From positions 1 to 10,926 of the IMG/VR virus record IMGVR_UViG_2728369607_000012: a stretch of DNA of 10,926 nucleotides; one strand, given 5' to 3'. The notes beneath the pieces were generated by a model, which was not told where the DNA came from, made no database searches, and worked only from the letters and a program-made list of their open reading frames with translations. How positions within the stretch are numbered: position 1 is the first letter of the stretch; each line of letters begins with the position of its first letter. Below are positions 675 to 10,926 of this stretch, piece after piece. Both the position numbers and the translations under genes were made by a program. The stretch comes from a virus (taxonomy: Duplodnaviria; Heunggongvirae; Uroviricota; Caudoviricetes).

Positions 675-965
675 TTACCGCCGTAACCGCCGTAACCGCT
701 CCGGCTTCTTCCAGTGGTACGTGATTTTCTCCTTCTCCCGATACAGTTCAACGCGGCGATTGTAGGCCAGCATTTCCAGAACGCGGATCCGTATGTCGCG
801 CATATCCGCATCATTAAGCTGGATACCATCACGGCGCATCACCTCAGCAACAACACGCGCATAATTTTCGGCTGTCACGCTGTCCGGCTGCGTGGTCTGT
901 TCGTCAGCCTGCTGGCTGATTCCAGAGACGCGGCGGATTAATCGCAGTATTTCGGCTTCTGTCAT
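675..965 (-). CDS. Hypothetical protein (96 aa) with Arg-rich C-terminus (RLRRLRR)
   Basis: ATG at 965 preceded by GAGGT with a 7-nt spacer; starts 13 nt after the TerL stop; C-terminus is encoded by three tandem 9-bp GTAACCGCC-like repeats at 674-700. No family recognised. Confidence 0.5.
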   Translation of the reverse strand: MTEAEILRLIRRVSGISQQADEQTTQPDSVTAENYARVVAEVMRRDGIQLNDADMRDIRIRVLEMLAYNRRVELYREKEKITYHWKKPERLRRLRR

Positions 966-978
966 GCTGCTGACCTCA

Positions 979-2640
979 TTACACCCCGCTAAATTCTTCC
1001 AGTTTCTGGCGGTGGCTGTCGCTTATATCAAAAGCAAAATCCTCATGCTCTGCCTGGAATGTACCAAACGCCATCAGCGCCGCTACGCTCGGGTCTATCT
1101 TGTTCGGTGATTTTTTCTTGTTCGGCTTGATATTGGCGTTCGCGTCACTCTGCATCACGACGTTACTCATCGACCAGGACAACACCGGATCGCCACGATG
1201 CACAATCACCCTGCGGTTAACAAAAACTTCGAACGATTTCGCCGCCGGACTGAATCTGAGGTAGGTTTGCGGGAACGGCTCCACCTCAAAACCAGCCCCC
1301 TGTAATTGCGTCCTGAGATGCGTGGCGTTCCACGTATCAAAGCCCACCAGCCTGATATTAAATTTCTCCGCATCCTGCATGATGTCATCTCTGATCCGGT
1401 CGTAATCAATGCAGTCACCTGGCGTTGTGCGTATCCAGCCCGCTTTAGCCCACTGGCGATAGACAGCGCGGTTTTTATTGGCGGGGTTCTGTAGCTGGAA
1501 CTCCGGCAGATAATGACGGGAAACCAGCATGATATTTTTACCGACCGGAAAGGCATAGCACACGCTGGAAATATCGCTGGTTGATGATAAGTCCAGCCCC
1601 GCGTAACACTCCTGCCCGTGTAAATCTTCCTCCGTGAACGTTCCGGCACACTCAGCCCATGCGCCGTTACCCATCCACGGGGTAGCCCCCTGGCACCAGA
1701 TATTAAATCGCTTTGTCATCATCTCCACCCATTGCGACGGAATACCCCGCGCTTTCTGGATGGTTGAGGCCAGTTTTTCACGATCCACGGAAACATCGAT
1801 GTTAGGGTTAGCCTTTATCCACATCGCCGGATCATCAACCTCGTTTTCGTCGTCCAGCTCGTAAATCAGCACAAAAATTGAATCGTTGACCTCTTCGCCG
1901 TCCAGGATCTGGCAGCAATAATCATAGTGCTGCTTACAGGCTGAAACGACGTTACTGCCCGATGTGGTAATGGCAAATAACAGCCCTTCGGGACGTGCGC
2001 CCATCCCCAGCTCAAGCGCGGAATAAACGCCGTTATCGGGGTGTAGGTGGTATTCGTCCACGATGGAAAGGCTTGGGTTTGTGCCCTCGATGGTTGCCGC
2101 TTTTGCTGCCAGCGGCTTTAACAGGCTGTTGCTTTTCGGGTGCATCACCTTGTGGGCCTGAATATTCACCCGCCTGCGTAACGGTCGGGATAAAAGGCAC
2201 ATCTGACGCGCATCATCAAAAACGATCCGCGCCTGGTCACGGCTCACCGCTGCGGTGTAAATATCCTGCTGCCCGTTCTCCATAATCAGAAACCAGTTAG
2301 CCAGAATCGCGGCGGTCGTGGATTTCGCATTTTTGCGCGGCACTTCGATAAAGGCGCTCGTGTATTTGCGCCGTCCGGTGGCCTTAACCTTAAAGCCGAG
2401 GATGCACGCAAAGGCGAACTGCTGCCACGGCTCCAGCTCAATGGATCTGCCACGCATCGGCCCTTTTACGTGCGGGCACACCCTGGAAAAGGCAATAAAC
2501 CGCTCCACAACCTCACGATCGAACGTGTAAAGGGGGCTTTCAAGGTCCGAAAAGTACCGTTTAACGGCCTGTTTCAGCCGTTTACAGGCCGGAATTTTGC
2601 CCGTTTTTACGTCTTCTGCGTACTTATTCCAGGCGGTCAA
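979..2640 (-). CDS. terL: Terminase large subunit (553 aa)
   Basis: Size, N-terminal pattern (AWNKYAEDVKTGKIPACKRLKQAVKRYFSDLE) and position directly after terS are typical of HK97/lambda-type TerL. Start codon is TTG at 2638-2640, preceded by AGAGGA with a 5-nt spacer; overlaps terS by 17 nt. Confidence 0.9.
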   Translation of the reverse strand: MTAWNKYAEDVKTGKIPACKRLKQAVKRYFSDLESPLYTFDREVVERFIAFSRVCPHVKGPMRGRSIELEPWQQFAFACILGFKVKATGRRKYTSAFIEVPRKNAKSTTAAILANWFLIMENGQQDIYTAAVSRDQARIVFDDARQMCLLSRPLRRRVNIQAHKVMHPKSNSLLKPLAAKAATIEGTNPSLSIVDEYHLHPDNGVYSALELGMGARPEGLLFAITTSGSNVVSACKQHYDYCCQILDGEEVNDSIFVLIYELDDENEVDDPAMWIKANPNIDVSVDREKLASTIQKARGIPSQWVEMMTKRFNIWCQGATPWMGNGAWAECAGTFTEEDLHGQECYAGLDLSSTSDISSVCYAFPVGKNIMLVSRHYLPEFQLQNPANKNRAVYRQWAKAGWIRTTPGDCIDYDRIRDDIMQDAEKFNIRLVGFDTWNATHLRTQLQGAGFEVEPFPQTYLRFSPAAKSFEVFVNRRVIVHRGDPVLSWSMSNVVMQSDANANIKPNKKKSPNKIDPSVAALMAFGTFQAEHEDFAFDISDSHRQKLEEFSGV

Positions 2641-2980
2641 GCTCGTCCTCTTCTTCTGTTTCCGGTGGATTTTTACGGCGGCTTATCGGGTCAAAACCGA
2701 GCAAGGAGGCCATTTTTATCATCACTCTTTCAGCGTCGGATTTTGCGCTTAATGCGGGGTTTCTGCTCTCGCCGCCCTGACTGTTAACAATGCTGAACCC
2801 GCGCGCCGCAAGGTCTGCAACGGCTTTCCGGTAAATGGAGTAGTTGACACAATACAGTTCCAGATTGCTCCAGTCGGCGGGGGTCAGGTCTCCCCGTTCC
2901 GCAAGCTGCCTAGATTTTTCCCGCCACTGCTTCACGGCGATATCATCCAGGTAGGCGGGGGCTTTCGGTGGTCTTGACAT
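2624..2980 (-). CDS. terS: Terminase small subunit, P27-like (118 aa)
   Basis: N-terminus MSRPPKAPAYLDDIAVKQWREK...LELYCVNYSIYRKA resembles P27-family small terminases; acidic C-terminus; sits immediately upstream of and overlaps terL. Confidence 0.8.
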   Translation of the reverse strand: MSRPPKAPAYLDDIAVKQWREKSRQLAERGDLTPADWSNLELYCVNYSIYRKAVADLAARGFSIVNSQGGESRNPALSAKSDAERVMIKMASLLGFDPISRRKNPPETEEEDELDRLE

Positions 2981-3269
2981 GCTTATTTTTTCGCCAGATT
3001 ATTTTTCAAAAAATTCCCGTGCATAAAAATTTGAGGAGGCGTTCGGTGCCCGGCGGGGTCGGGTTTGTCCTGAAAACGCCCCCCACCCCGTCATACAGCC
3101 TCATCAGCGATTGCGGAAACATTCCATAACCTCGCGGTCACGGTCGGTTAATCGCTTCGCTGTGATGCGTTCTGCGCGTCCTGACGCTTTATCTTTATGC
3201 CCTGTTTCCTGTGTCTTCCATGCGTCACGCTGCCTTATAAGTCCACGGATAAGGCGGTTTTGTTCCCGC
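2981..3269 (-). promoter_or_regulatory. Candidate cos / packaging-initiation region (HNH-terS intergenic spacer)
   Basis: 289-bp non-coding gap in an otherwise tightly coupled operon; GC-rich core (ggtgcccggcggggtcgggtttgtcctgaaaacgccccccaccccg, about 3038-3090) flanked by AT-rich sequence. Position between HNH and terS matches where HK97-type cos sites lie. Confidence 0.3.
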
Positions 3270-3710
3270 TCATTCATCAGCGTCATACATCCAGTTATTG
3301 CGGTTAGCGGCCCGTTCTTCCTCTTCACGAAATCCACCTGCGGCACGCTTGCTTTTTGTTGCCGGATCAAGCCATTTCGTTTTCTGGTTATGACACGCCT
3401 GGCACAATGGTTGATGGTTCCATTCGGGCCAGAAGAGAACATCATCACCGCCATTAATCGGGATAATGTGATCCACCACCACGGCGGGCGTATATATCCC
3501 CTTCTCAAGGCATCGCACGCATAACGGGTTTTTACTCAGATACATGGCGCGGTATTTGTCCCACTGTCTGGAATATCCACGCGCGCGGCGGTGTCCTCGT
3601 CTGGCATCCTCTGCACGCCATGCTGCCCGCCTGTGCTCCTCACACTTGCCGGATTTAACGCGCCTGTTACAGCCTGGTTCTGTGCATCGTCTTAATGGTT
3701 GCCACGGCAT
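3270..3710 (-). CDS. HNH endonuclease (146 aa), terminase-associated
   Basis: Cys/His zinc-finger-like N-terminus (CTEPGCNRRVKSGKCEEH) and HNH-type motif (VVDHIIPINGGDD...NHQPLCQACHNQKT); located directly upstream of terS; start overlaps connector stop (TGATG). Confidence 0.85.
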   Translation of the reverse strand: MPWQPLRRCTEPGCNRRVKSGKCEEHRRAAWRAEDARRGHRRARGYSRQWDKYRAMYLSKNPLCVRCLEKGIYTPAVVVDHIIPINGGDDVLFWPEWNHQPLCQACHNQKTKWLDPATKSKRAAGGFREEEERAANRNNWMYDADE

Positions 3711-4006
3711 CAGTACACCCCCACATCACGGTAAGCCGTCCAGAGTGCGCCAATCGTCATGGGTACGCGTGTTTTTGCGTTATCCGCGACAATCTGGCGA
3801 TTCTCATACAGGTGAGCGATAAACATCATGCAGCCAATCTTTATGGCTGGCGTGAACTCCAGCCCGTCATCAAAGCGCCTGCCTATGTGTATCTGGCACG
3901 CCTCAAGCGATGCGGCAATGTATCCGCTGATTAACTGGTCTTCCTCGTCTCCATCGATACGGCAATGGAGTTTCACTTCTTCCAGGGTGATAAGTTCTTC
4001 TGTCAT
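3710..4006 (-). CDS. Head-tail connector protein, gp6-like (98 aa)
   Basis: Size and sequence character (MTEELITLEEVKLHCRIDGDEEDQLISGYIAA...) typical of gp6-like connector proteins; ATGA start/stop overlap with the upstream gene. Confidence 0.7.
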   Translation of the reverse strand: MTEELITLEEVKLHCRIDGDEEDQLISGYIAASLEACQIHIGRRFDDGLEFTPAIKIGCMMFIAHLYENRQIVADNAKTRVPMTIGALWTAYRDVGVY

Positions 4007-4341
4007 TTTTCCGCGCCCTCACGACAAAGAATTTCAAGGCGTGTCCTGGCGACATCCGGCAACGGCTGCCCGATGATATTCAGTACACGCCCCGCCAGCG
4101 GCCCCGTACTGACCTTTATCCGGCTGGTGGCGTTGATGTCCTTCCGGTACCGTATCCAGATCCTTACGGTACCAATCGCCAGCTCTGCGCCCGATGAAAT
4201 GGCCTCCTTGCTGCTGATCATGTTCACGCTTGCCCAGAGTGTGTGACCGTCCTCCCACGTTTCGAGTATTTCGCCCGTCATGGCTCTGGTCTGTTTCAGG
4301 GTCTGAATCGTTATCCTGTCACGCAGTCGCCCTATGTTCAT
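4003..4341 (-). CDS. Head-tail adaptor / head closure protein (112 aa)
   Basis: Sequence resembles phage head-tail joining family proteins. Start chosen at ATG 4339-4341 (ATGA overlap with portal stop, GGGAGA upstream) rather than the longer form from 4383. Confidence 0.7.
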   Translation of the reverse strand: MNIGRLRDRITIQTLKQTRAMTGEILETWEDGHTLWASVNMISSKEAISSGAELAIGTVRIWIRYRKDINATSRIKVSTGPLAGRVLNIIGQPLPDVARTRLEILCREGAEK

Positions 4342-5549
4342 TCCGGTTTTTCTCCCTCGCTGATTTTTACTTCCTGTTTCCATGCCTGACTGAACTCATC
4401 ACCACCATCACGCGGTGACAGTCCTTCACGTTCGCGGGCTTCGTTCGGGCACATAACGCCGGATTTGATGCCGCACTCATAGGTGGCAAAGCGTTCGCCA
4501 GGTGTGGCCCGTAACAGGTCCGCGCTGTCAAACTCCACCTGATACCGGATACCAGGTACAGGCGAGGCCACCAGCAGGGCGTTTTTTATCTGCTGCTCAA
4601 AGTTCGCCAGCCACGGGCGCATCGTCATGGTGAGAAATGCGCGGCTTGCCTCGCTGAAATTGCTGTAGGTGCTGTTGCTGTATTCCTGCAAAAAAATCGG
4701 CGAGACGTTGAACATTCGGGCGATGTCTTCAATGGTAAAGCGACGGGAGGCCAGCCATTCAGCATCCTGATTACTCATGCCCAGCTGCTGATAGCTCATC
4801 CCCCCTTCAAGGATGGGCGTTTTTCCGGCGTTTCTGGCCCCTTTGTAGCGTTCCAGTGCGGCTAATGCCTGTTTGCCCTTCACGCCGTCCAGCCATTCGC
4901 CTGACGTGATAACCCCTGCCGCCATCATGCCATCACGCATCACGCTCGCGCCGTGGCGTTGTTGGGCCAGCCCAAGCCCCAGCGATTCGCGGCAGATGGT
5001 TACAGGTGAGCGCCCCATAAAGCCGTCATCCGTGGAGTAACGAAGGTGAAGTACTTCCCACGGTAAATAGTTGTGGGTGTTTCCGGTGTAGGCGTCAGTG
5101 ATGCAATAGCGCCAGTTGTGTTCGCCTGTCTGCTCCACGTTCACCGACTGCGGCGGGTAAGGATGTAAAGCCGCCGGAAAACCATCACGCCCCCACTGAA
5201 TAACCGCATAAGCATTACCGTTTAACAGGCAGTGGCGGATCATCATTCGCTTAAACTGGTAGGGGGTTTGCCATGCGTTCGGGCGCTCGTTGAGGATGTG
5301 ATCGACCGGATGAGAATCAAGCCACTCGCGGGCCTCCTTCCCCTTCTCATTGCGTACCAGGTACAGGTAGCATGGCATAGTAGCCACCGCCTCAGAGATG
5401 ACCGTAACGGCGTTCATGACGGCAGGCAGTGATTCCGCTGTCCCCGATGATACGTACTCACCCGCCCCCGTGTTCGATGTGCCAGCCAGCGCCATAAATT
5501 CATCAAGCGTCATGCTGCGCTGCTCTTTTTTTCTTCTGAAAGGCCACAT
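4338..5549 (-). CDS. Portal protein, HK97-type (403 aa)
   Basis: Size and sequence typical of HK97-family portal proteins; flanked by prohead protease and head-tail adaptor genes. Confidence 0.88.
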   Translation of the reverse strand: MWPFRRKKEQRSMTLDEFMALAGTSNTGAGEYVSSGTAESLPAVMNAVTVISEAVATMPCYLYLVRNEKGKEAREWLDSHPVDHILNERPNAWQTPYQFKRMMIRHCLLNGNAYAVIQWGRDGFPAALHPYPPQSVNVEQTGEHNWRYCITDAYTGNTHNYLPWEVLHLRYSTDDGFMGRSPVTICRESLGLGLAQQRHGASVMRDGMMAAGVITSGEWLDGVKGKQALAALERYKGARNAGKTPILEGGMSYQQLGMSNQDAEWLASRRFTIEDIARMFNVSPIFLQEYSNSTYSNFSEASRAFLTMTMRPWLANFEQQIKNALLVASPVPGIRYQVEFDSADLLRATPGERFATYECGIKSGVMCPNEAREREGLSPRDGGDEFSQAWKQEVKISEGEKPE

Positions 5550-5550
5550 A

Positions 5551-6123
5551 TCACACCCCCGCTAAATCCACCCACCAGCGGCGATTATCCGCACGCGGCA
5601 TTTTTTCGGGGTGCTGCTCATACAGGGAACGGCGGGCCAGCTCCACGCCGGAATCGGGGTAAGCCGGTACCGATGTAACGGTAATTTCGTACAGTTCCGC
5701 CACCAGCACGGTGCGCACGCATGGATCTGTTGTGGTATCCCATACATCCTTACGGGAGCGAAAGCCAAAGCTCATGCCGGATATATCACCACGTTTAACC
5801 AGTTCGATAACGTCGCGCCCTGTACTGGTATCCGGTGGGGTCAGTTCAAAGCGTAACCCTGTTTCATCCTCTTCCAGTTTCAGCGTGCCGGAACGGGTGC
5901 GCCCCAGTAACATACTGTGGTCATGCTCATACAGGCCGCGAACGTCATTACCCGCCGCAAGCCATTCAGTAAACGCCCCCCGCTGGAATTTTTCGTAAAA
6001 CTCACCCCATAACAGTTCTGAAAGCTTATCCCAGCGAACAACGTAGCCTGTAAGCGTGTTGCTGCCGCTGGTGGTGATTTCCGATGACCGGATTTCCATA
6101 CTCTTCATAATTTTTTCACCCAT
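5551..6123 (-). CDS. Prohead maturation protease, HK97-type (190 aa; exact start uncertain)
   Basis: Sequence typical of HK97-family prohead proteases; sits between major capsid and portal genes. Three ATGs within the first nine codons make the start ambiguous. Confidence 0.82.
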   Translation of the reverse strand: MGEKIMKSMEIRSSEITTSGSNTLTGYVVRWDKLSELLWGEFYEKFQRGAFTEWLAAGNDVRGLYEHDHSMLLGRTRSGTLKLEEDETGLRFELTPPDTSTGRDVIELVKRGDISGMSFGFRSRKDVWDTTTDPCVRTVLVAELYEITVTSVPAYPDSGVELARRSLYEQHPEKMPRADNRRWWVDLAGV

Positions 6124-6133
6124 AAAACACTAA

Positions 6134-6151
6134 AGGGGCTTTTAAGCCCCT
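6134..6151 (-). terminator. Stem-loop plus U-rich tract between capsid and protease genes (partial terminator / attenuator)
   Basis: On the minus strand: AGGGGCTT-AAAA-GCCCCT-type hairpin followed by TTAGTGTTTT immediately before the protease ATG. Confidence 0.35.
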
Positions 6152-6162
6152 TCTGTATGCTG

Positions 6163-7320
6163 TTAATCGTCGTCCTGTGGCAGTTCCAGAATCTTGATCG
6201 CGTTCGAATCCACCACGCCACCGCCTAAATATTTCTGCGTGAAAATTTTGATGAAACCCGGCTCTGTGAGGTTGTCCGGTCTGGTGCGAACACCTGTTTC
6301 GTGATCAACAATGTAGTAACCGCGTTTGAAGTCACCCAGGGCAATAACGTTATCAGGCATAAACTCCAGATATTCGACCGGAAGGCCCAGCAACGTATCA
6401 GGATCACCCGCCTGTAAACGGTCACGCCAGATGTAATCACCGTTCGCGTTCTTCACCTTCTGGAGTTTTGCCGCCGTCGTGGAGTTAACCACCCAGACCG
6501 CGTTTTTGCGGTATTTTTTACGTAATGCAAATTTCAGGTCGATCAGCGGGTCCGCAGATGTCCACGCCAGAGATTCGGAAGGTTTAATTACCTGCAACGT
6601 ACCAAAATCACGCTCTTTGTCGTTCTTCTCTGCACGGGGTACGGATAAAAAACCTTTTGCTTTTTTGTCACCGTCGCCCACAACCAGATCGCTTTCTTCG
6701 GTTTCCGTGAAGGTGTCGCCAATCTCACCCGTCAGCCATGAAAGGATGTCCACATCGGAAAAATCCACGATTTCCTGTGTGGTGCGCGGGTACGCATAGA
6801 CCGGATACAGCTTAATGCTCACCTCGTTAATCTGCGGGGTGCTGGTCTGTTCGCGTGCCTTACCCTCTTCACCGTGGTTAACGGTCGCACCGCCAGCGGA
6901 AACAAGCTGCTTAAACTCGTTGCTGCTGATTTTTTTCACGGTACAGATGCGGCGCATGGTGGACTCATCCGCCAGCATTCGCATGATTTCGGTGTTCAGT
7001 TCGGGGATAACGGTATAACCACCATCAGCGGGAACGCCTGTACTTAATGCGCGGGTTTCACCTGTCAGAATGTAGCTGCGTAGTTCTGCGGGGTCAGTGG
7101 TCTGGCTGCTTTTACCTGGCTTGCTGCGCTCTTCGTCTGCAATGGCTTCAAGGCGGGAAATGTCTTTATCGAGGGATTCAGCTTTAGCGCGTAATTCGTC
7201 AAATTTTGCGCCCTCAGCATCGTTAAGACTGCGGTTTTCTTTTTCCGCGTTCTCCAGCATGTCGCGCATCTGATTTTTAATGGCGGTTTTCTGCTGGCGT
7301 AATTCGATTATTCTCGGCAT
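6163..7320 (-). CDS. Major capsid protein, HK97-type (385 aa)
   Basis: Size typical of HK97-fold capsid proteins; N-terminal region rich in charged, coiled-coil-like sequence (delta/scaffold-like domain); followed by protease and portal genes. Confidence 0.88.
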   Translation of the reverse strand: MPRIIELRQQKTAIKNQMRDMLENAEKENRSLNDAEGAKFDELRAKAESLDKDISRLEAIADEERSKPGKSSQTTDPAELRSYILTGETRALSTGVPADGGYTVIPELNTEIMRMLADESTMRRICTVKKISSNEFKQLVSAGGATVNHGEEGKAREQTSTPQINEVSIKLYPVYAYPRTTQEIVDFSDVDILSWLTGEIGDTFTETEESDLVVGDGDKKAKGFLSVPRAEKNDKERDFGTLQVIKPSESLAWTSADPLIDLKFALRKKYRKNAVWVVNSTTAAKLQKVKNANGDYIWRDRLQAGDPDTLLGLPVEYLEFMPDNVIALGDFKRGYYIVDHETGVRTRPDNLTEPGFIKIFTQKYLGGGVVDSNAIKILELPQDDD

Positions 7321-7357
7321 AAAAAAAGTCCTGGGGTTAAGTAAGGAACTCCAGGAC
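7321..7357 (-). promoter_or_regulatory. Terminator-like hairpin plus U7 abutting the capsid start codon
   Basis: Minus strand reads GTCCTGG-AGTTCCTTACTTAACC-CCAGGAC then TTTTTTT then ATG. The only SD-like AGGA lies inside the 3' arm of the stem. Confidence 0.4.
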
Positions 7358-7410
7358 GCGGCAAAAACTCAACCGTTTTTCATAAGGGAATCAGCAATCG
7401 CACCGATCGT

Positions 7411-7458
7411 TTTCCCGCCTGGTAATGAATATTGGCGAGCACATTAACAGGCGGGAAA
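7411..7458 (-). repeat. Inverted repeat in capsid-operon leader (11-bp perfect arms, extendable to 17 bp with one mismatch)
   Basis: tttcccgcctg (7411-7421) and caggcgggaaa (7448-7458) are exact reverse complements. Confidence 0.6.
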
Positions 7459-7504
7459 GTGGCCCCAGCGTCCTGGCACCACGGGCGAGAATAATCATGA
7501 TTCA

Positions 7505-7560
7505 GTTCGGGTAAAATATGCCGATCCGCTCAGTGAACAACGTGGAACAACCACGAACAA
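7505..7560 (-). promoter_or_regulatory. Candidate promoter / activator site for the capsid operon: three helically phased TTGTTC hexamers
   Basis: On the minus strand TTGTTC recurs three times at exactly 10-bp spacing (plus-strand GAACAA at 7535-7540, 7545-7550, 7555-7560). The last copy sits 16 bp upstream of a TATTTT -10-like hexamer (plus 7513-7518). Confidence 0.3.
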
Positions 7561-7565
7561 ATAAT

Positions 7566-7601
7566 TTACAAAAAATAACAAAAAGCCGGATTGCTCCGGC
7601 T
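7566..7601 (-). terminator. Rho-independent terminator
   Basis: Minus strand: AGCCGGA-GCAA-TCCGGCT stem-loop (GNRA-type loop) followed by TTTTTGTTATTTTTT; lies downstream of the 53-aa ORF stop at 7624. Confidence 0.65.
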
Positions 7602-7623
7602 GCGTGGTGTGGTTCTGATATTC

Positions 7624-7785
7624 CTACTCTGCTAATTTGCTCAGCCCCATGTCTGCGTAAGTGCGATTTACTGCATTTCTCAGGTCTGCGTAGTTCTCCG
7701 TTGGCGGCTCCGGTGTGCCCTTGCTGCTCTGTTTTACCTGCGGGTCGTCCACCAGCCGCCCGTAAGCTGCAATTTGTGCTGTCAT
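7624..7785 (-). CDS. Small hypothetical protein (53 aa)
   Basis: ATG at 7783-7785 preceded by GAGGTGG with a 4-nt spacer; starts 9 nt after the upstream gene stop; followed by the intrinsic terminator. Below the 60-aa cutoff of the supplied ORF track; found by manual translation. Confidence 0.45.
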   Translation of the reverse strand: MTAQIAAYGRLVDDPQVKQSSKGTPEPPTENYADLRNAVNRTYADMGLSKLAE

Positions 7786-7794
7786 ATTGCCACC

Positions 7795-8100
7795 TCAGTG
7801 AAGCGATCCGGCATTGTTCTTTTTCATCTCTTCCATCATTTTTTCAGTGAGCATTACGCACTGAAACCCCATGTTTTTGATGTCTACGGGTTTCATGCCT
7901 TTGTCAGTGGATATCACAGGCAGAATATCCTGATACACATCGCGGTCAGGGTAACTAAGCACACAAAGCGCCCATGATGCCACGGGTGAGGATCCTTCGA
8001 CTGTTTCAACCCACCAGCCTGGTGTAGCTGCGCTTATTTGCAGAATCGTGATCCGTCCGTTGTGCTTGTAAAATTTTTCACCAAATTTTGGTTCGCTCAT
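7795..8100 (-). CDS. Hypothetical protein (101 aa)
   Basis: Start ATG overlaps the stop of the upstream ORF (ATGA); co-oriented in a tightly packed operon. No family recognised. Confidence 0.55.
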   Translation of the reverse strand: MSEPKFGEKFYKHNGRITILQISAATPGWWVETVEGSSPVASWALCVLSYPDRDVYQDILPVISTDKGMKPVDIKNMGFQCVMLTEKMMEEMKKNNAGSLH

Positions 8101-8348
8101 GATTCCACCTCTCCGGTTTTAACGTTGATTGTTGTTACCTGTTCCGCTTCGGCAATCTCCCGTTCTGTCAGCGTGGCAAAGTTTGCCGCCGCTGTGGTCA
8201 TGAATGCGCTTATCAGTTCGGGATGCTCCTTCGCGTATCCTTCCCCCGCGTGGCGGTCTATCGTTCTGATTGCCACCTTTAAAGCGTGCTCTGTCATGTC
8301 TAACGCTTTATATTTTGGCTGTGTTCTGTCTCTGCGTTTTTGTGTCAT
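8097..8348 (-). CDS. Hypothetical protein (83 aa from ATG 8348; start uncertain)
   Basis: The longest form (from 8396) has its N-terminus encoded by the iteron repeats, so an internal start is more plausible. ATG 8348 is abutted by GGGGAG; ATG 8297 is an alternative. Confidence 0.45.
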   Translation of the reverse strand: MTQKRRDRTQPKYKALDMTEHALKVAIRTIDRHAGEGYAKEHPELISAFMTTAAANFATLTEREIAEAEQVTTINVKTGEVES

Positions 8349-8351
8349 CTC

Positions 8352-8525
8352 CCCACCTATACCCACTTTTACTCCCCACTTTTCACAATTCCCCATTTAT
8401 CATGCTGTTTCATAAGGATTTTTTTGCTCCCCACTTTTTGGGATGTATACAGGTCAAAAAGTGGGGGATCGTGTTTAAATTTTGTTAAATTCCCCATACC
8501 CACCACTTTTGCCACCCACTTTTTA
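8352..8525. repeat. Iteron array: candidate replication origin
   Basis: CCCACTTTT-type motif in direct orientation at about 8362-8370, 8374-8383, 8429-8439, 8499-8510 and 8515-8524, and inverted at 8456-8466. The 8429-8439 and 8456-8466 copies form an 11-bp perfect inverted repeat around a 16-bp spacer containing GTATAC. An AT-rich stretch lies at 8471-8490. The array begins at the replication-protein stop codon. Confidence 0.55.
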
Positions 8526-9932
8526 CAGTGGCCCTACATCATCGCCGTCAACATAGATAACGCCGTCTTTTTCCAGCTTGCCCAGCCAGCGCCGGAAGTG
8601 CTTTATTTCGTACCCCAGTTTTTTCATGTCATCACGTAACAGCGGGATCGTGCACTTGTCGCCGTTCTGTGTGCGTGAACGGATACACCCCCATAGCGCG
8701 GTATGGTTTTCCGTCTTGTTGCCTGCCTCTTCGATGCGCTCCAGTTCAACGGGAGGGCGCGGCTTATCCACCACCACCAGCGACGTGATTAACTCCCCGT
8801 CAGCGTCGGTAAAAAGCTCCACCACCCGCAAATCATAGGCAGCCTCTTTGAGTTCCTCCGCGTCCTTCATTTTGGTGCATGAGATAACCAGCGCTTCGCT
8901 TCCTGCGTCCTCCCTGCGTATCCGGTATTCAGCATCCAGTGATGCACGAAATGCACTGGAACCGCGCGCGCCTTTCGTCTCATCCTTGCCGGAATGGTGA
9001 ACCACCAGCACCGTGGCCCCTGTGCGTCGTTTCAGTTCGTCACAACCACGGATAAACGCCCCCATATCACGGGAATCATTTTCATCATTCCCACCAAAGC
9101 AACGCGCCAGCGTATCCAGAATAATCATGCGTACAGGTTTACCCGTTTCCCGCTCCACCTGACGGGCAGCGATAACCATTTCATCAACATCAAGCGGGAC
9201 CGCCGGAAAGATGGGACGGTTTACCAGATACAGATTTTTCACCTGCTCACCGTGCACAACCTCCCAGGCTTTTACACGACGCGGAACGCCGATACCGCCT
9301 TCACCAACCACATAGAGAACAGCGCCATGCGCCACCCTGCGGCCTCCCCACTGGCGGCCCGTGGAAACGTGACACGCCCACGATCCGGCAAGGAATGATT
9401 TATAGGAACCGCTCGCCCCGTATATGCTGCAAAGCGACGATGCCGGAATAATCCCCTTTACCACGTAATCAAGCTGTGTGTCGTATCCGGTAGATCCAAC
9501 GCTCATCGGTAGCGTGGTTTTTCGCTGGGGGATTTTTTTCATGACCAGGCTTTCCCCGCGTTCCCATGCCTCCCTAAGCCGTGGAAGCTGGTCGCTCCAT
9601 TCCTCCAGCAATTCGAAATTTTCAGAAAGTAGCCGCGCCTCCTGGACTCCGGCGATCGCCAGTTTCGTGGCGATGGTTAACAGCTGCGGCTCTTCAATAT
9701 TTCCGGCGCGTATCACCGTCGCCCTGTATCGCCCATCATCAACAATCTGGAGGTTATCCAGTTCGCTTAACTGATAACGCCCCAGATAAACGGGAGGGAC
9801 TGGATCTCCTGCTTTTTTTGCCTGTGCAATGATGTAATGCTCTGCGAATGAATGAGCATCAATACCCGCAAAAATAATCGCATCGGTGTATTTATCTTTC
9901 GGTAATCGTTTTACGTTCGGTGCCAGTTTCAT
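8523..9932 (-). CDS. Replication protein with RecA/DnaB-like ATPase core (469 aa); satellite or phage replication initiator-helicase
   Basis: Walker A-like GASGSYKS, Walker B-like RMIILD, and VVHHSGKDETKGARGSSA motif typical of RepA/DnaB-like replicative ATPases; N- and C-terminal extra domains; start forms an ATGA overlap with the upstream ORF. Confidence 0.8.
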   Translation of the reverse strand: MKLAPNVKRLPKDKYTDAIIFAGIDAHSFAEHYIIAQAKKAGDPVPPVYLGRYQLSELDNLQIVDDGRYRATVIRAGNIEEPQLLTIATKLAIAGVQEARLLSENFELLEEWSDQLPRLREAWERGESLVMKKIPQRKTTLPMSVGSTGYDTQLDYVVKGIIPASSLCSIYGASGSYKSFLAGSWACHVSTGRQWGGRRVAHGAVLYVVGEGGIGVPRRVKAWEVVHGEQVKNLYLVNRPIFPAVPLDVDEMVIAARQVERETGKPVRMIILDTLARCFGGNDENDSRDMGAFIRGCDELKRRTGATVLVVHHSGKDETKGARGSSAFRASLDAEYRIRREDAGSEALVISCTKMKDAEELKEAAYDLRVVELFTDADGELITSLVVVDKPRPPVELERIEEAGNKTENHTALWGCIRSRTQNGDKCTIPLLRDDMKKLGYEIKHFRRWLGKLEKDGVIYVDGDDVGPL

Positions 9933-10228
9933 TTTTTACCCCTGAATCCGTTAATCATGGTTTTCAGCTTCTGGATGTTTGCCCGTGCCCTGGCGTTGCT
10001 GGTGGGCACGTTATGCGGCGCGGTCTGTACCAGAGAAAAATCACGCCGGAACTGATAAACAGGCATCACGCAATCATATTCGTAACCTTCACGGCGGTAA
10101 GTTACGCACCGTCCCGCCACGCCCTTAATCATTACCGTACCGCCGTACTGGTCGCGGTAAATATCACCGCGCGTAAATTTAGGGTGAGTGTTGCCACTGG
10201 CAGTTAAGCCAGAATATTTAAGTTTCAT
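9929..10228 (-). CDS. Hypothetical protein (99 aa)
   Basis: ATG at 10228 preceded by GGAGAA with an 8-nt spacer; stop overlaps the replication-protein start. No family recognised. Confidence 0.55.
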   Translation of the reverse strand: MKLKYSGLTASGNTHPKFTRGDIYRDQYGGTVMIKGVAGRCVTYRREGYEYDCVMPVYQFRRDFSLVQTAPHNVPTSNARARANIQKLKTMINGFRGKK

Positions 10229-10233
10229 TATTT

Positions 10234-10467
10234 TTATTCTCCGGTGTGGGGCGCTTTATACTGGTCGTGTAATGTCTCTATTTCCTGCAACTCATTTATT
10301 ACAGGCTCAAGAAGCGTTATTAATGCCGTGGCAATTCTTGATTTTTGTTTGTCGCGTTCATTGTCGCCAAGTGTTTCAAGCCATATGCGCAATATTTCCA
10401 TCATATTTTCACTGTGAGAAAGTGCAAGAAATACGCGATCTGTTGTTTCGTGGTAAATATCACGCAT
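10234..10467 (-). CDS. Hypothetical protein (77 aa)
   Basis: ATG at 10467 preceded by GAGGATG with a 6-nt spacer; overlaps the upstream ORF by 8 nt. Confidence 0.5.
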   Translation of the reverse strand: MRDIYHETTDRVFLALSHSENMMEILRIWLETLGDNERDKQKSRIATALITLLEPVINELQEIETLHDQYKAPHTGE

Positions 10468-10693
10468 GGCTTACATCCTCAGGAAATTTTCTTCTGTAAC
10501 GAGCCTCTGCCACATATTCCGCATAATCGGCGGCGATATTCAGTACATCAAGCCCCGTTGATTTATATTCTCTCGTGGAAAGTAAGAAAAAAGCCGCTCT
10601 AATAAGTTCTGGCATTGACGAAAGCGCATCAGCCGCATCATCAGATACGCCGGAAAATTCCTGTTTCAGGGAATTAAAACGATCATCAAGCAT
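10460..10693 (-). CDS. Hypothetical acidic protein (77 aa)
   Basis: ATG at 10693 sits 2 nt downstream of a G9 tract on the coding strand; part of the same small-gene operon. Confidence 0.45.
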   Translation of the reverse strand: MLDDRFNSLKQEFSGVSDDAADALSSMPELIRAAFFLLSTREYKSTGLDVLNIAADYAEYVAEARYRRKFPEDVSHA

Positions 10694-10926
10694 AACCCCC
10701 CCCCATTTTCACAATCAGCAATCAGGATAGCTTTGGCCTCATTCAGCGCCATATCAGCACTAAGTTGCATAACCGCCAGCGAATGAGGAACGAAAGCCCC
10801 TGCATATTCTGTTTCACTGGTGGCGTGCTTATGCGCCCTGTCAGCAATAACAGAAATATCAATAAGCGCGTGCATCAGCGTAGTGAGCGCGGCGGCTGCT
10901 GCGTCCGGTGTGGTTTTATTGTGCAT
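10666..10926 (-). CDS. Hypothetical protein (86 aa or longer; may continue beyond the window edge)
   Basis: Open frame reaches the window end, where an ATG sits at 10924-10926; the 3' end reads through the G9 tract (encodes GGG). Confidence 0.4.
   Translation of the reverse strand: MHNKTTPDAAAAALTTLMHALIDISVIADRAHKHATSETEYAGAFVPHSLAVMQLSADMALNEAKAILIADCENGGGLCLMIVLIP
10696..10704. repeat. Homopolymeric C9 (G9 on coding strand) tract
   Basis: Nine consecutive C at 10696-10704, read directly from the sequence. Confidence 0.9.

Follow-up and report, generated by a model that had tools for sequence, protein, structure and literature searches.

The DNA analysed here, 10,926 nt of the IMG/VR record IMGVR_UViG_2728369607_000012 (called the window below; all coordinates are those of the whole stretch), almost certainly covers about 70% of an element of about 15 kb, a capsid-forming phage-inducible chromosomal island (cf-PICI) that belongs to the EcCIEDL933 lineage. 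It is a cf-PICI by its gene content and gene order, by its near-identity to the characterised prototype and by the absence of tail and lysis genes both in the window and around complete relatives. cf-PICIs were first described in 2022-2023, and the original prediction, made from the letters alone, had placed the window in this class. The element is of a known kind and nearly identical to the well-studied EcCIEDL933 of Escherichia coli, which makes the call a correct one and not a new discovery.

A packaging module without tail genes

Genes were called by Pfam and PHROG profile searches, plus tblastn against annotated relatives. Every credible gene is on the minus strand. In the direction of that strand the order is three small open reading frames (ORFs), a DUF4222 gene, a RepA-type helicase gene, a group of iterons, two small ORFs, an ssb'-'perC remnant and a leader, followed by the genes for capsid, protease, portal, head closure, gp6-like adaptor, HNH endonuclease, a protein of 60 amino acids (aa), TerS and TerL, a 96-aa ORF and non-coding DNA. 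No ORF on either strand matched a tail, baseplate, holin or endolysin family in Pfam or PHROG. No tRNA (ARAGORN) and no Rfam family at the gathering threshold was found in the window. The packaging module (979-7320) consists of nine genes, for which identities are given against EcCIEDL933:

979-2640, minus: terminase large subunit TerL (ATPase and nuclease); PF03354 (TerL_ATPase) and PF20441 (TerL_nuclease), phrog_9; 98.2% identical
2624-2980, minus: terminase small subunit TerS (P27/Terminase_4); PF05119, E=1.3e-23, phrog_83; 99.2% identical
3104-3286, minus: 60-aa protein; phrog_3173; 60/60 residues identical to EDL933 'gene 1792'
3270-3710, minus: HNH endonuclease; PF01844, phrog_144, E=8e-45; 99.3% identical
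3710-4006, minus: gp6-like head-tail adaptor (Ad1); PF05135 (Phage_connect_1), phrog_40; 98/98 identical
4003-4341/4383, minus: head closure/completion protein (Hc1, 'connector'); PF05521 (Phage_HCP), phrog_25; 112/112 identical
4338-5549, minus: portal; PF04860, E=1.8e-89; 99.3% identical
5551-6123, minus: S78 prohead serine protease (HK97 family); PF04586, E=4e-48; 98.4% identical
6163-7320, minus: HK97-fold major capsid protein with N-terminal delta/scaffold domain; PF05065; 99.2% identical

All eight packaging genes that define a cf-PICI, according to the methods of 10.1101/2025.02.11.637232 and the SatelliteFinder core components (PMC10085698), are intact and in canonical order together with the gene 1792 homologue. 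The eight had all been named in the original prediction and were all assigned by Pfam and PHROG; the 60-aa gene was the one that it missed. The same definition asks for a replication module of the island's own, which is seen here as the helicase gene (8523-9932) with the adjoining iterons (8361-8523), and for a size of about 10-18 kb with attachment (att) repeats. The window is cut off at 10.9 kb; near-identical complete islands are 15.0-15.3 kb with repeats of 21-43 bp. The definition further includes the lack of lysis genes and of a tail module, and an integrase or other recombinase with an AlpA-type regulator at the proximal end; these last two are located 1-2.5 kb past the right end of the window in the 2014C-3307 and S19-141 islands.

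The capsid protein matches PDB entry 9GYI, the deposited cryo-electron microscopy model of the EcCIEDL933 T=4 capsid, at 382 of 385 residues in a PDB sequence search. The substitutions are at residues 82, 117 and 155, and none affects the positions reported as essential in the EcCIEDL933 capsid, i.e. D257, K290, D295, E319, R345 and the loop 227-248 (10.1101/2025.02.11.637232). The distant PDB relatives of the portal are HK97-family portals, and the HNH protein is read as a packaging cofactor of the terminase. A gene 1792 mutant of EcCIEDL933 is severely impaired in transfer (10.1101/2022.09.08.507074).

EcCIEDL933, from E. coli O157:H7 EDL933, is the prototypical cf-PICI (Alqurainy et al., 10.1101/2022.09.08.507074; He et al., 10.1101/2025.02.11.637232). 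According to these two reports it is induced by the helper phages HK106 and HK446 via alpA, and each of its packaging genes is needed for transfer of the island but not for transfer of the phage. Its small capsids are encoded by the island (T=4, 47.5 nm, HK97 fold) and mature by proteolysis, and only tail genes are needed from the helper, with adaptor and connector deciding which tails can be used. The packaging proteins of the window are 98-100% identical to those of this experimentally demonstrated cf-PICI, which bears out the class that had been predicted.

Gene content also decides against two other kinds of element, a classical PICI that forms no capsid and a gene transfer agent. Early modules of the RepA, DUF4222 and alpA type are common to classical E. 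coli PICIs, and the capsid protein matches the RcGTA capsid (E=9e-47). However, portal, adaptor, connector and terL are 'forbidden' in the SatelliteFinder PICI model (PMC10085698) and are all present here, while gene transfer agents carry tail genes and lack replication and integration modules of their own, the reverse of what is found here. Both assignments are refuted on these grounds and their probability is close to nil.

Genomic context and integrity of the island

The window was compared with 5,426 complete E. coli genomes and 50,697 phage records. At least 80% of it is present in 82 of the genomes and some part in 1,704, and islands in the 15 E. coli genomes listed are 96.6-98.4% identical to the window over 93-100% of its length. 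Window DNA of any extent is found in only four phage records, none of which covers more than 18%. Four complete islands, at three chromosomal sites, were inspected:

E. coli 2014C-3307 (NZ_CP027368.1): island splits tqsA; 23-bp direct repeat, spacing 15.3 kb
S19-141 (NZ_CP075640.1): island between thiM and rcnR; 43-bp direct repeat, spacing 15.0 kb
MFDS1006657: island between phoQ and roxA; 21-bp direct repeat
EDL933 (EcCIEDL933): island between phoQ and roxA; 21-bp direct repeat, spacing 15.2 kb

On the terL side of all four a small ORF is followed by non-coding DNA (about 0.7-0.8 kb), the att direct repeat and then core genes (tqsA/ydgV, thiM or phoQ). The far side has an Icd-like gene and other small genes, a Phage_AlpA regulator, a tyrosine integrase and then the core genes tqsA/pntB, rcnR or roxA; the regulator and the integrase at this end are backed by Pfam (Phage_AlpA and Phage_integrase). 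No tail or lysis genes were found in or flanking these four islands at the three sites. The original prediction had stated that the block would be simply the head region of a conventional prophage if tail, baseplate and lysis genes adjoined it, and had proposed extending the sequence in search of an integrase and att repeats. In the complete relatives, integrase and att repeats are present and adjoining tail or lysis genes are not. The prediction had also listed lysogeny-control genes as missing together with tail and lysis genes. This holds for the tail and lysis genes, but the lack of integrase and alpA in the window is due to the window stopping short of that end, since alpA starts about 1.0-1.9 kb and int about 2.1-2.5 kb past the right end in near-identical complete islands.

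The head region of a conventional HK97-like prophage is effectively refuted, as neither the window nor the flanks of the four relatives contain tail, baseplate/tip or lysis genes. A defective prophage would be the head-and-packaging remnant of such a phage after deletion of the tail and lysis genes. The individual proteins do belong to ordinary phage families, and capsid and portal have distant HK97-family and gene transfer agent relatives in the PDB. A remnant is nevertheless hard to reconcile with a compact 15-kb layout that is found again at three att sites, bounded by clean direct repeats and equipped with an integrase and alpA of its own, or with the number of genomes that hold at least 80% of the window and the 96.6-98.4% identity in those listed. 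All ORFs are intact, the order from the replication gene over the capsid to terS-terL at the end is that of cf-PICIs and not of HK97-like phages, the phage records have almost no DNA in common with the window, and the prototype is mobile in experiments. That the window is a prophage remnant is therefore highly improbable, and the cf-PICI reading is retained.

A question of another kind is whether this copy is still functional, because one deletion is seen between the leader and the small ORFs:

7624-7785, minus: ssb'-'perC in-frame fusion remnant of 53 aa, the scar of a deletion of about 500 bp compared with 2014C-3307, S19-141 and EcCIEDL933

In the remnant, residues 1-25 of SSB are joined to residues 54-82 of PerC from the 2014C-3307 island (tblastn), i.e. 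to the last 29 perC codons. The PerC Pfam match covers remnant residues 21-49, and the two sides of the alignment break overlap by 9 bp (7711-7719). The scar is also found in E. coli MFDS1006657, where int, alpA and att repeats are present, and in Shigella flexneri SFBU1023. Since it is common to otherwise complete islands it appears to be tolerated and inherited, and is unlikely to be disabling.

Some points count against the cf-PICI reading or its extension to this copy. No one-piece match to the arrangement of the window was found among the 5,426 complete E. coli genomes. One contig, from S. flexneri SFBU1023, matched the exact 151-nt junction pattern and proved to be a different mosaic; its island is about 98% identical and has another replication gene and an extra insert of about 330 bp, which the pattern could not discriminate because it began inside a 23-bp repeat. 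Furthermore, int, alpA and both att repeats are outside the window, so that integrity and mobility of this copy are assumed from its relatives, the ssb-perC deletion could in principle lower fitness, and we infer the helper identity, the position of the cos site and the function of the origin.

It could be argued that the element is a cf-PICI that has lost its autonomy, having decayed or become immobile through the ssb-perC deletion or through lesions in the unseen int/alpA end. The in-frame scar, the position of that end beyond the window and the absence of the exact arrangement from the complete genomes all agree with this. The scar is, however, shared with the otherwise complete MFDS1006657 island and with S. 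flexneri, ssb and perC are located in a region described as variable or accessory in cf-PICIs and PICIs (10.1101/2025.02.11.637232; PMC11773190), and the packaging and replication genes are all intact and 98-100% conserved. Loss of autonomy is considered unlikely.

Replication, control regions and proposed cycle

Upstream of the packaging operon are the replication module, the early operon and two further small genes:

8361-8523: candidate replication origin; six CCCCACTTTT iterons (at most one mismatch), five of them direct and one inverted, adjoining the 3' end of the helicase gene
8523-9932, minus: RepA-type (AAA_25) replicative helicase/initiator, 469 aa; PF13481, E=2e-43; phrog_2850 over the full length, E=6e-224
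9929-10228, minus: DUF4222 protein; PF13973, E=2e-23; translationally coupled to the helicase gene
10234-10926, minus: three small early-operon ORFs (77, 77 and 86 aa); phrog_2196, phrog_2512/24341 and phrog_5146
7795-8100 and 8097-8348, minus: two small conserved ORFs (101 and 83 aa); phrog_27268 and phrog_1231; 98-100% identical to 2014C-3307

The replication protein of its own that had been predicted is this helicase, and the profile searches against phage families, which had been proposed as a check, confirmed the packaging and replication identities. The homologues in 2014C-3307 and S19-141 are annotated as 'helicase RepA family protein', and a PDB sequence search found no solved relative. 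In PICIs and Staphylococcus aureus pathogenicity islands the origin is usually located 3' of rep. From its position 3' of the helicase gene, the iteron cluster is a candidate for the replication origin that had been suspected in the prediction. CCCCACTTTT occurs in seven copies in the whole window compared with 0.85 expected, and 0 of 200 shuffles reached seven copies, so that the motif is far more frequent than by chance.

The replication gene differs among near-identical islands: EDL933 encodes a DUF927 protein, MFDS1006657 a 'DNA primase family protein', and the window, 2014C-3307 and S19-141 the RepA helicase. The DUF4222 gene has an equivalent position in all four complete islands and has been kept upstream of the replication gene despite the swapped replication modules (8039-10171 of the EcCIEDL933 locus and 8523-9932 of the window). 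The ORFs at 10234-10926 are 66-96% identical to 2014C-3307 (tblastn), and the right edge of the window is the start codon of the last of them.

Except for the PerC fragment, the small ORFs have no Pfam match, and no defence system was found among the accessory ORFs or for the helicase with PADLOC. EcCIEDL933 is reported not to block its helper or reduce the reproduction of the helper. The proposal that the small ORFs are helper-interference genes therefore finds no backing.

The start site of packaging would be expected in the region in front of terS:

2981-3103, minus: intergenic region upstream of terS, in which we infer a candidate cos

HNH-dependent cos phages have cos upstream of terS. 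A G-rich block, GGGGTGGGGGGCGTTTTCAGGAC, is found here at about 3093-3067 (minus), followed by a C-rich partial complement. The linear record LR881103.1, a packaged cf-PICI-like element, has an end exactly at the homologous G-rich block; the ends of this record suggest the location of cos, which is probably within the spacer at 2981-3103. LR881103.1 was deposited as a phage ('Escherichia phage vB_KppS-Ant', 1-16548, induced prophage) yet its genes are those of a cf-PICI and follow the cf-PICI order: int, regulator, primase, capsid and so on to HNH, terS and terL. The 765-aa 'tail length tape measure protein' that follows terL in this record has no support in Pfam or PADLOC and is probably an accessory gene.

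The cycle proposed for the island is carried over from the prototype on the basis of the 98-100% identity of the packaging proteins. A helper phage would activate alpA, whereupon the island would excise and replicate from the iteron origin with the RepA-type helicase. The nine-gene packaging operon would then give a protease-matured T=4 capsid of the HK97 fold with the island's own portal. At an island-specific cos, which probably lies a little upstream of terS, island DNA would be cut and packaged by the TerS, TerL and HNH of the island, and adaptor and head closure would dock the tails of a helper siphovirus. As both match their EcCIEDL933 counterparts at 100% identity, the predicted tail donors are the same as for that island, i.e. 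of the HK106 type.

Expression of the packaging operon may be controlled in its leader:

7321-7623, minus: leader/regulatory region of the packaging operon; non-coding and structured

The leader has a predicted fold of -52.8 kcal/mol (z=-3.4), with strong folding over 7321-7470. A terminator scan gave a terminator-like hairpin at 7601-7584 (minus), AGCCGGAGCAATCCGGCT followed by a T-run, at the end of the early operon. A 23-bp sequence at 7580-7602 also flanks the insertion of about 330 bp in MFDS1006657, SFBU1023 and EcCIEDL933. Within the insertion there is a hypothetical gene of 74 aa, together with a 'trigger factor' annotation that is spurious. A long hairpin with 17-bp arms is located at 7458-7411, and another at 7357-7328 is followed by U7 abutting the capsid ATG, with the ribosome-binding site AGGA within its 3' arm. 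This last hairpin may be an attenuator or a mask of the ribosome-binding site. Covariation of the leader hairpins gave no evidence either way, as there is almost no variation among the E. coli copies and the Klebsiella-type element is unalignable. No sigma-70 consensus was found on the minus strand in 7321-7623, which fits expression that depends on an activator or antiterminator.

An 18-nt block, TTTTTGTAAATTATTTGT, at about 7543-7560 (minus) is unchanged between the E. coli islands and vB_KppS-Ant, a far more diverged element in which the surrounding DNA is unalignable. It is a candidate for a promoter or regulator site of the packaging operon. Between the capsid and protease genes there is also a strong terminator-like hairpin (6132-6153, minus; nine pairs, GAAGGGGCTT/AAGCCCCTT), which may be an attenuator setting the capsid to protease ratio.

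It is conceivable, though rather doubtful, that the window represents a distinct mosaic sub-lineage in which EcCIEDL933 packaging is combined with a RepA replicon with CCCCACTTTT iterons, ssb and perC have been lost, and the operon is possibly gated by the hairpin-U7 leader that buries the ribosome-binding site. If the gating is true, it would mean control by antitermination or by unmasking of the ribosome-binding site, through AlpA or a helper factor. Such control of cf-PICI packaging is not described in the cf-PICI papers cited here.

The end of the window beyond terL contains one gene and a non-coding arm:

675-965, minus: conserved 96-aa ORF directly after terL; phrog_1561, E=1.7e-55
1-674: non-coding distal arm between the last ORF and the att end, with repeats and several short palindromes

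The original prediction described the region after terL as non-coding repeats. This is correct for the outer stretch of about 670 bp, but the 96-aa ORF had been overlooked. The ORF matches WP_000133415 of 2014C-3307 at 93/93 residues, is 93.5% identical to the EcCIEDL933 homologue and has no match in Pfam or PADLOC; it could either close the packaging operon or be an accessory gene. Its C-terminus, RLRRLRR (675-699), extends three residues beyond WP_000133415 and coincides with 2.6 copies of a 9-bp tandem repeat, ACCGCCGTA.

No gene is annotated in the region homologous to 1-674 in 2014C-3307, S19-141 or MFDS1006657. The arm has a 40-nt direct repeat (407-446 and 590-629, 93% identical, copies 183 bp apart), of which MFDS1006657 has a single copy, suggesting gain or loss mediated by the repeat. 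Four GTCAC repeats are found in 10-bp phase at 341-377. May these motifs or the 40-nt repeat be arm sites for a recombinase or for Xis/AlpA? Position 1 of the window aligns to position 12001 of the S19-141 locus, 68 bp inside the 43-bp att repeat of that island (11891-11933). Positions 1-37 match only the S19-141 type of arm, and from position 38 onward the window also aligns to 2014C-3307. From this alignment the window begins just inside the distal end of the island, and the att direct repeat is placed just outside it, about 70-110 bp from position 1.

Comparison with known systems

The practical value of the result is in correct annotation, because loci of this kind are routinely taken, wrongly, for incomplete prophages or even deposited as phages. 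The recognition of the element from raw sequence was accurate and the finding is an ordinary one. It has little weight as a discovery, as the capsid of the prototype has been solved and the packaging module is shared almost residue for residue.

The nine-gene packaging module has a matching order in EcCIEDL933, with proteins that are 98-100% identical and DNA that is 97.5% identical over window positions 686-7602; adaptor, head closure and the gene 1792 homologue are each 100% identical. Both elements have DUF4222 upstream of the replication gene, a small ORF after terL and no tail or lysis genes. They differ in replication, where EcCIEDL933 has a 710-aa DUF927 protein and the window the 469-aa RepA/AAA_25 helicase, with similarity only in residues 1-121 (46%). 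Moreover, DUF4222 is 78% identical, the early small ORFs are not alike, ssb and perC are reduced to the 53-aa scar in the window and a segment of about 330 bp before the capsid leader is missing from it. The distal att arm of the window is of the thiM/rcnR-site type in contrast to the phoQ/roxA type of EcCIEDL933. Judged by sequence comparison, the element is a mosaic relative to the prototype: the packaging module is shared, the replication module is different, and both ssb and perC have been lost by deletion. The mosaic replication module is an example of the exchange of early-region modules between PICIs and cf-PICIs, which has already been reported.

Along its full length (100%), with DUF4222 and the iteron region included, the window is 97.8-98.4% identical to the cf-PICIs of 2014C-3307 and S19-141. 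Their RepA helicase is 99.6% identical in amino acids, and S19-141 also has the first 37 bases of the window (att arm). They differ in that ssb and perC are still intact, which makes them about 500 bp longer here than the window, and the right-hand 3.2 kb or so of the window is only about 96% identical, with one early ORF at only 66%.

Classical E. coli PICIs, such as EcCICFT073 and EcCIED1a, resemble this family in the int-alpA-rep early region, AlpA-dependent induction, att sites and PerC-like accessory genes. Unlike cf-PICIs they have no capsid, portal, connectors or TerL of their own and redirect the capsids and terminase of the helper (Rpp). HK97/HK106-like cos phages have the HK97-fold capsid and S78 protease, portal, gp6-like adaptor, head closure, and HNH with TerS and TerL in common with the element, which lacks their tail, lysis, immunity and full replication genes and has the order of the module reversed with terS-terL last. 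Their capsid is T=7, whereas that of the cf-PICI prototype is T=4 (10.1101/2025.02.11.637232), and protein identity to phages is reported to be low. The SatelliteFinder catalogue holds 969 cf-PICIs, from about 13% of Enterobacteriaceae genomes (PMC10085698). The element has its functional core in common with the prototype of this catalogued family and is therefore of a known kind.

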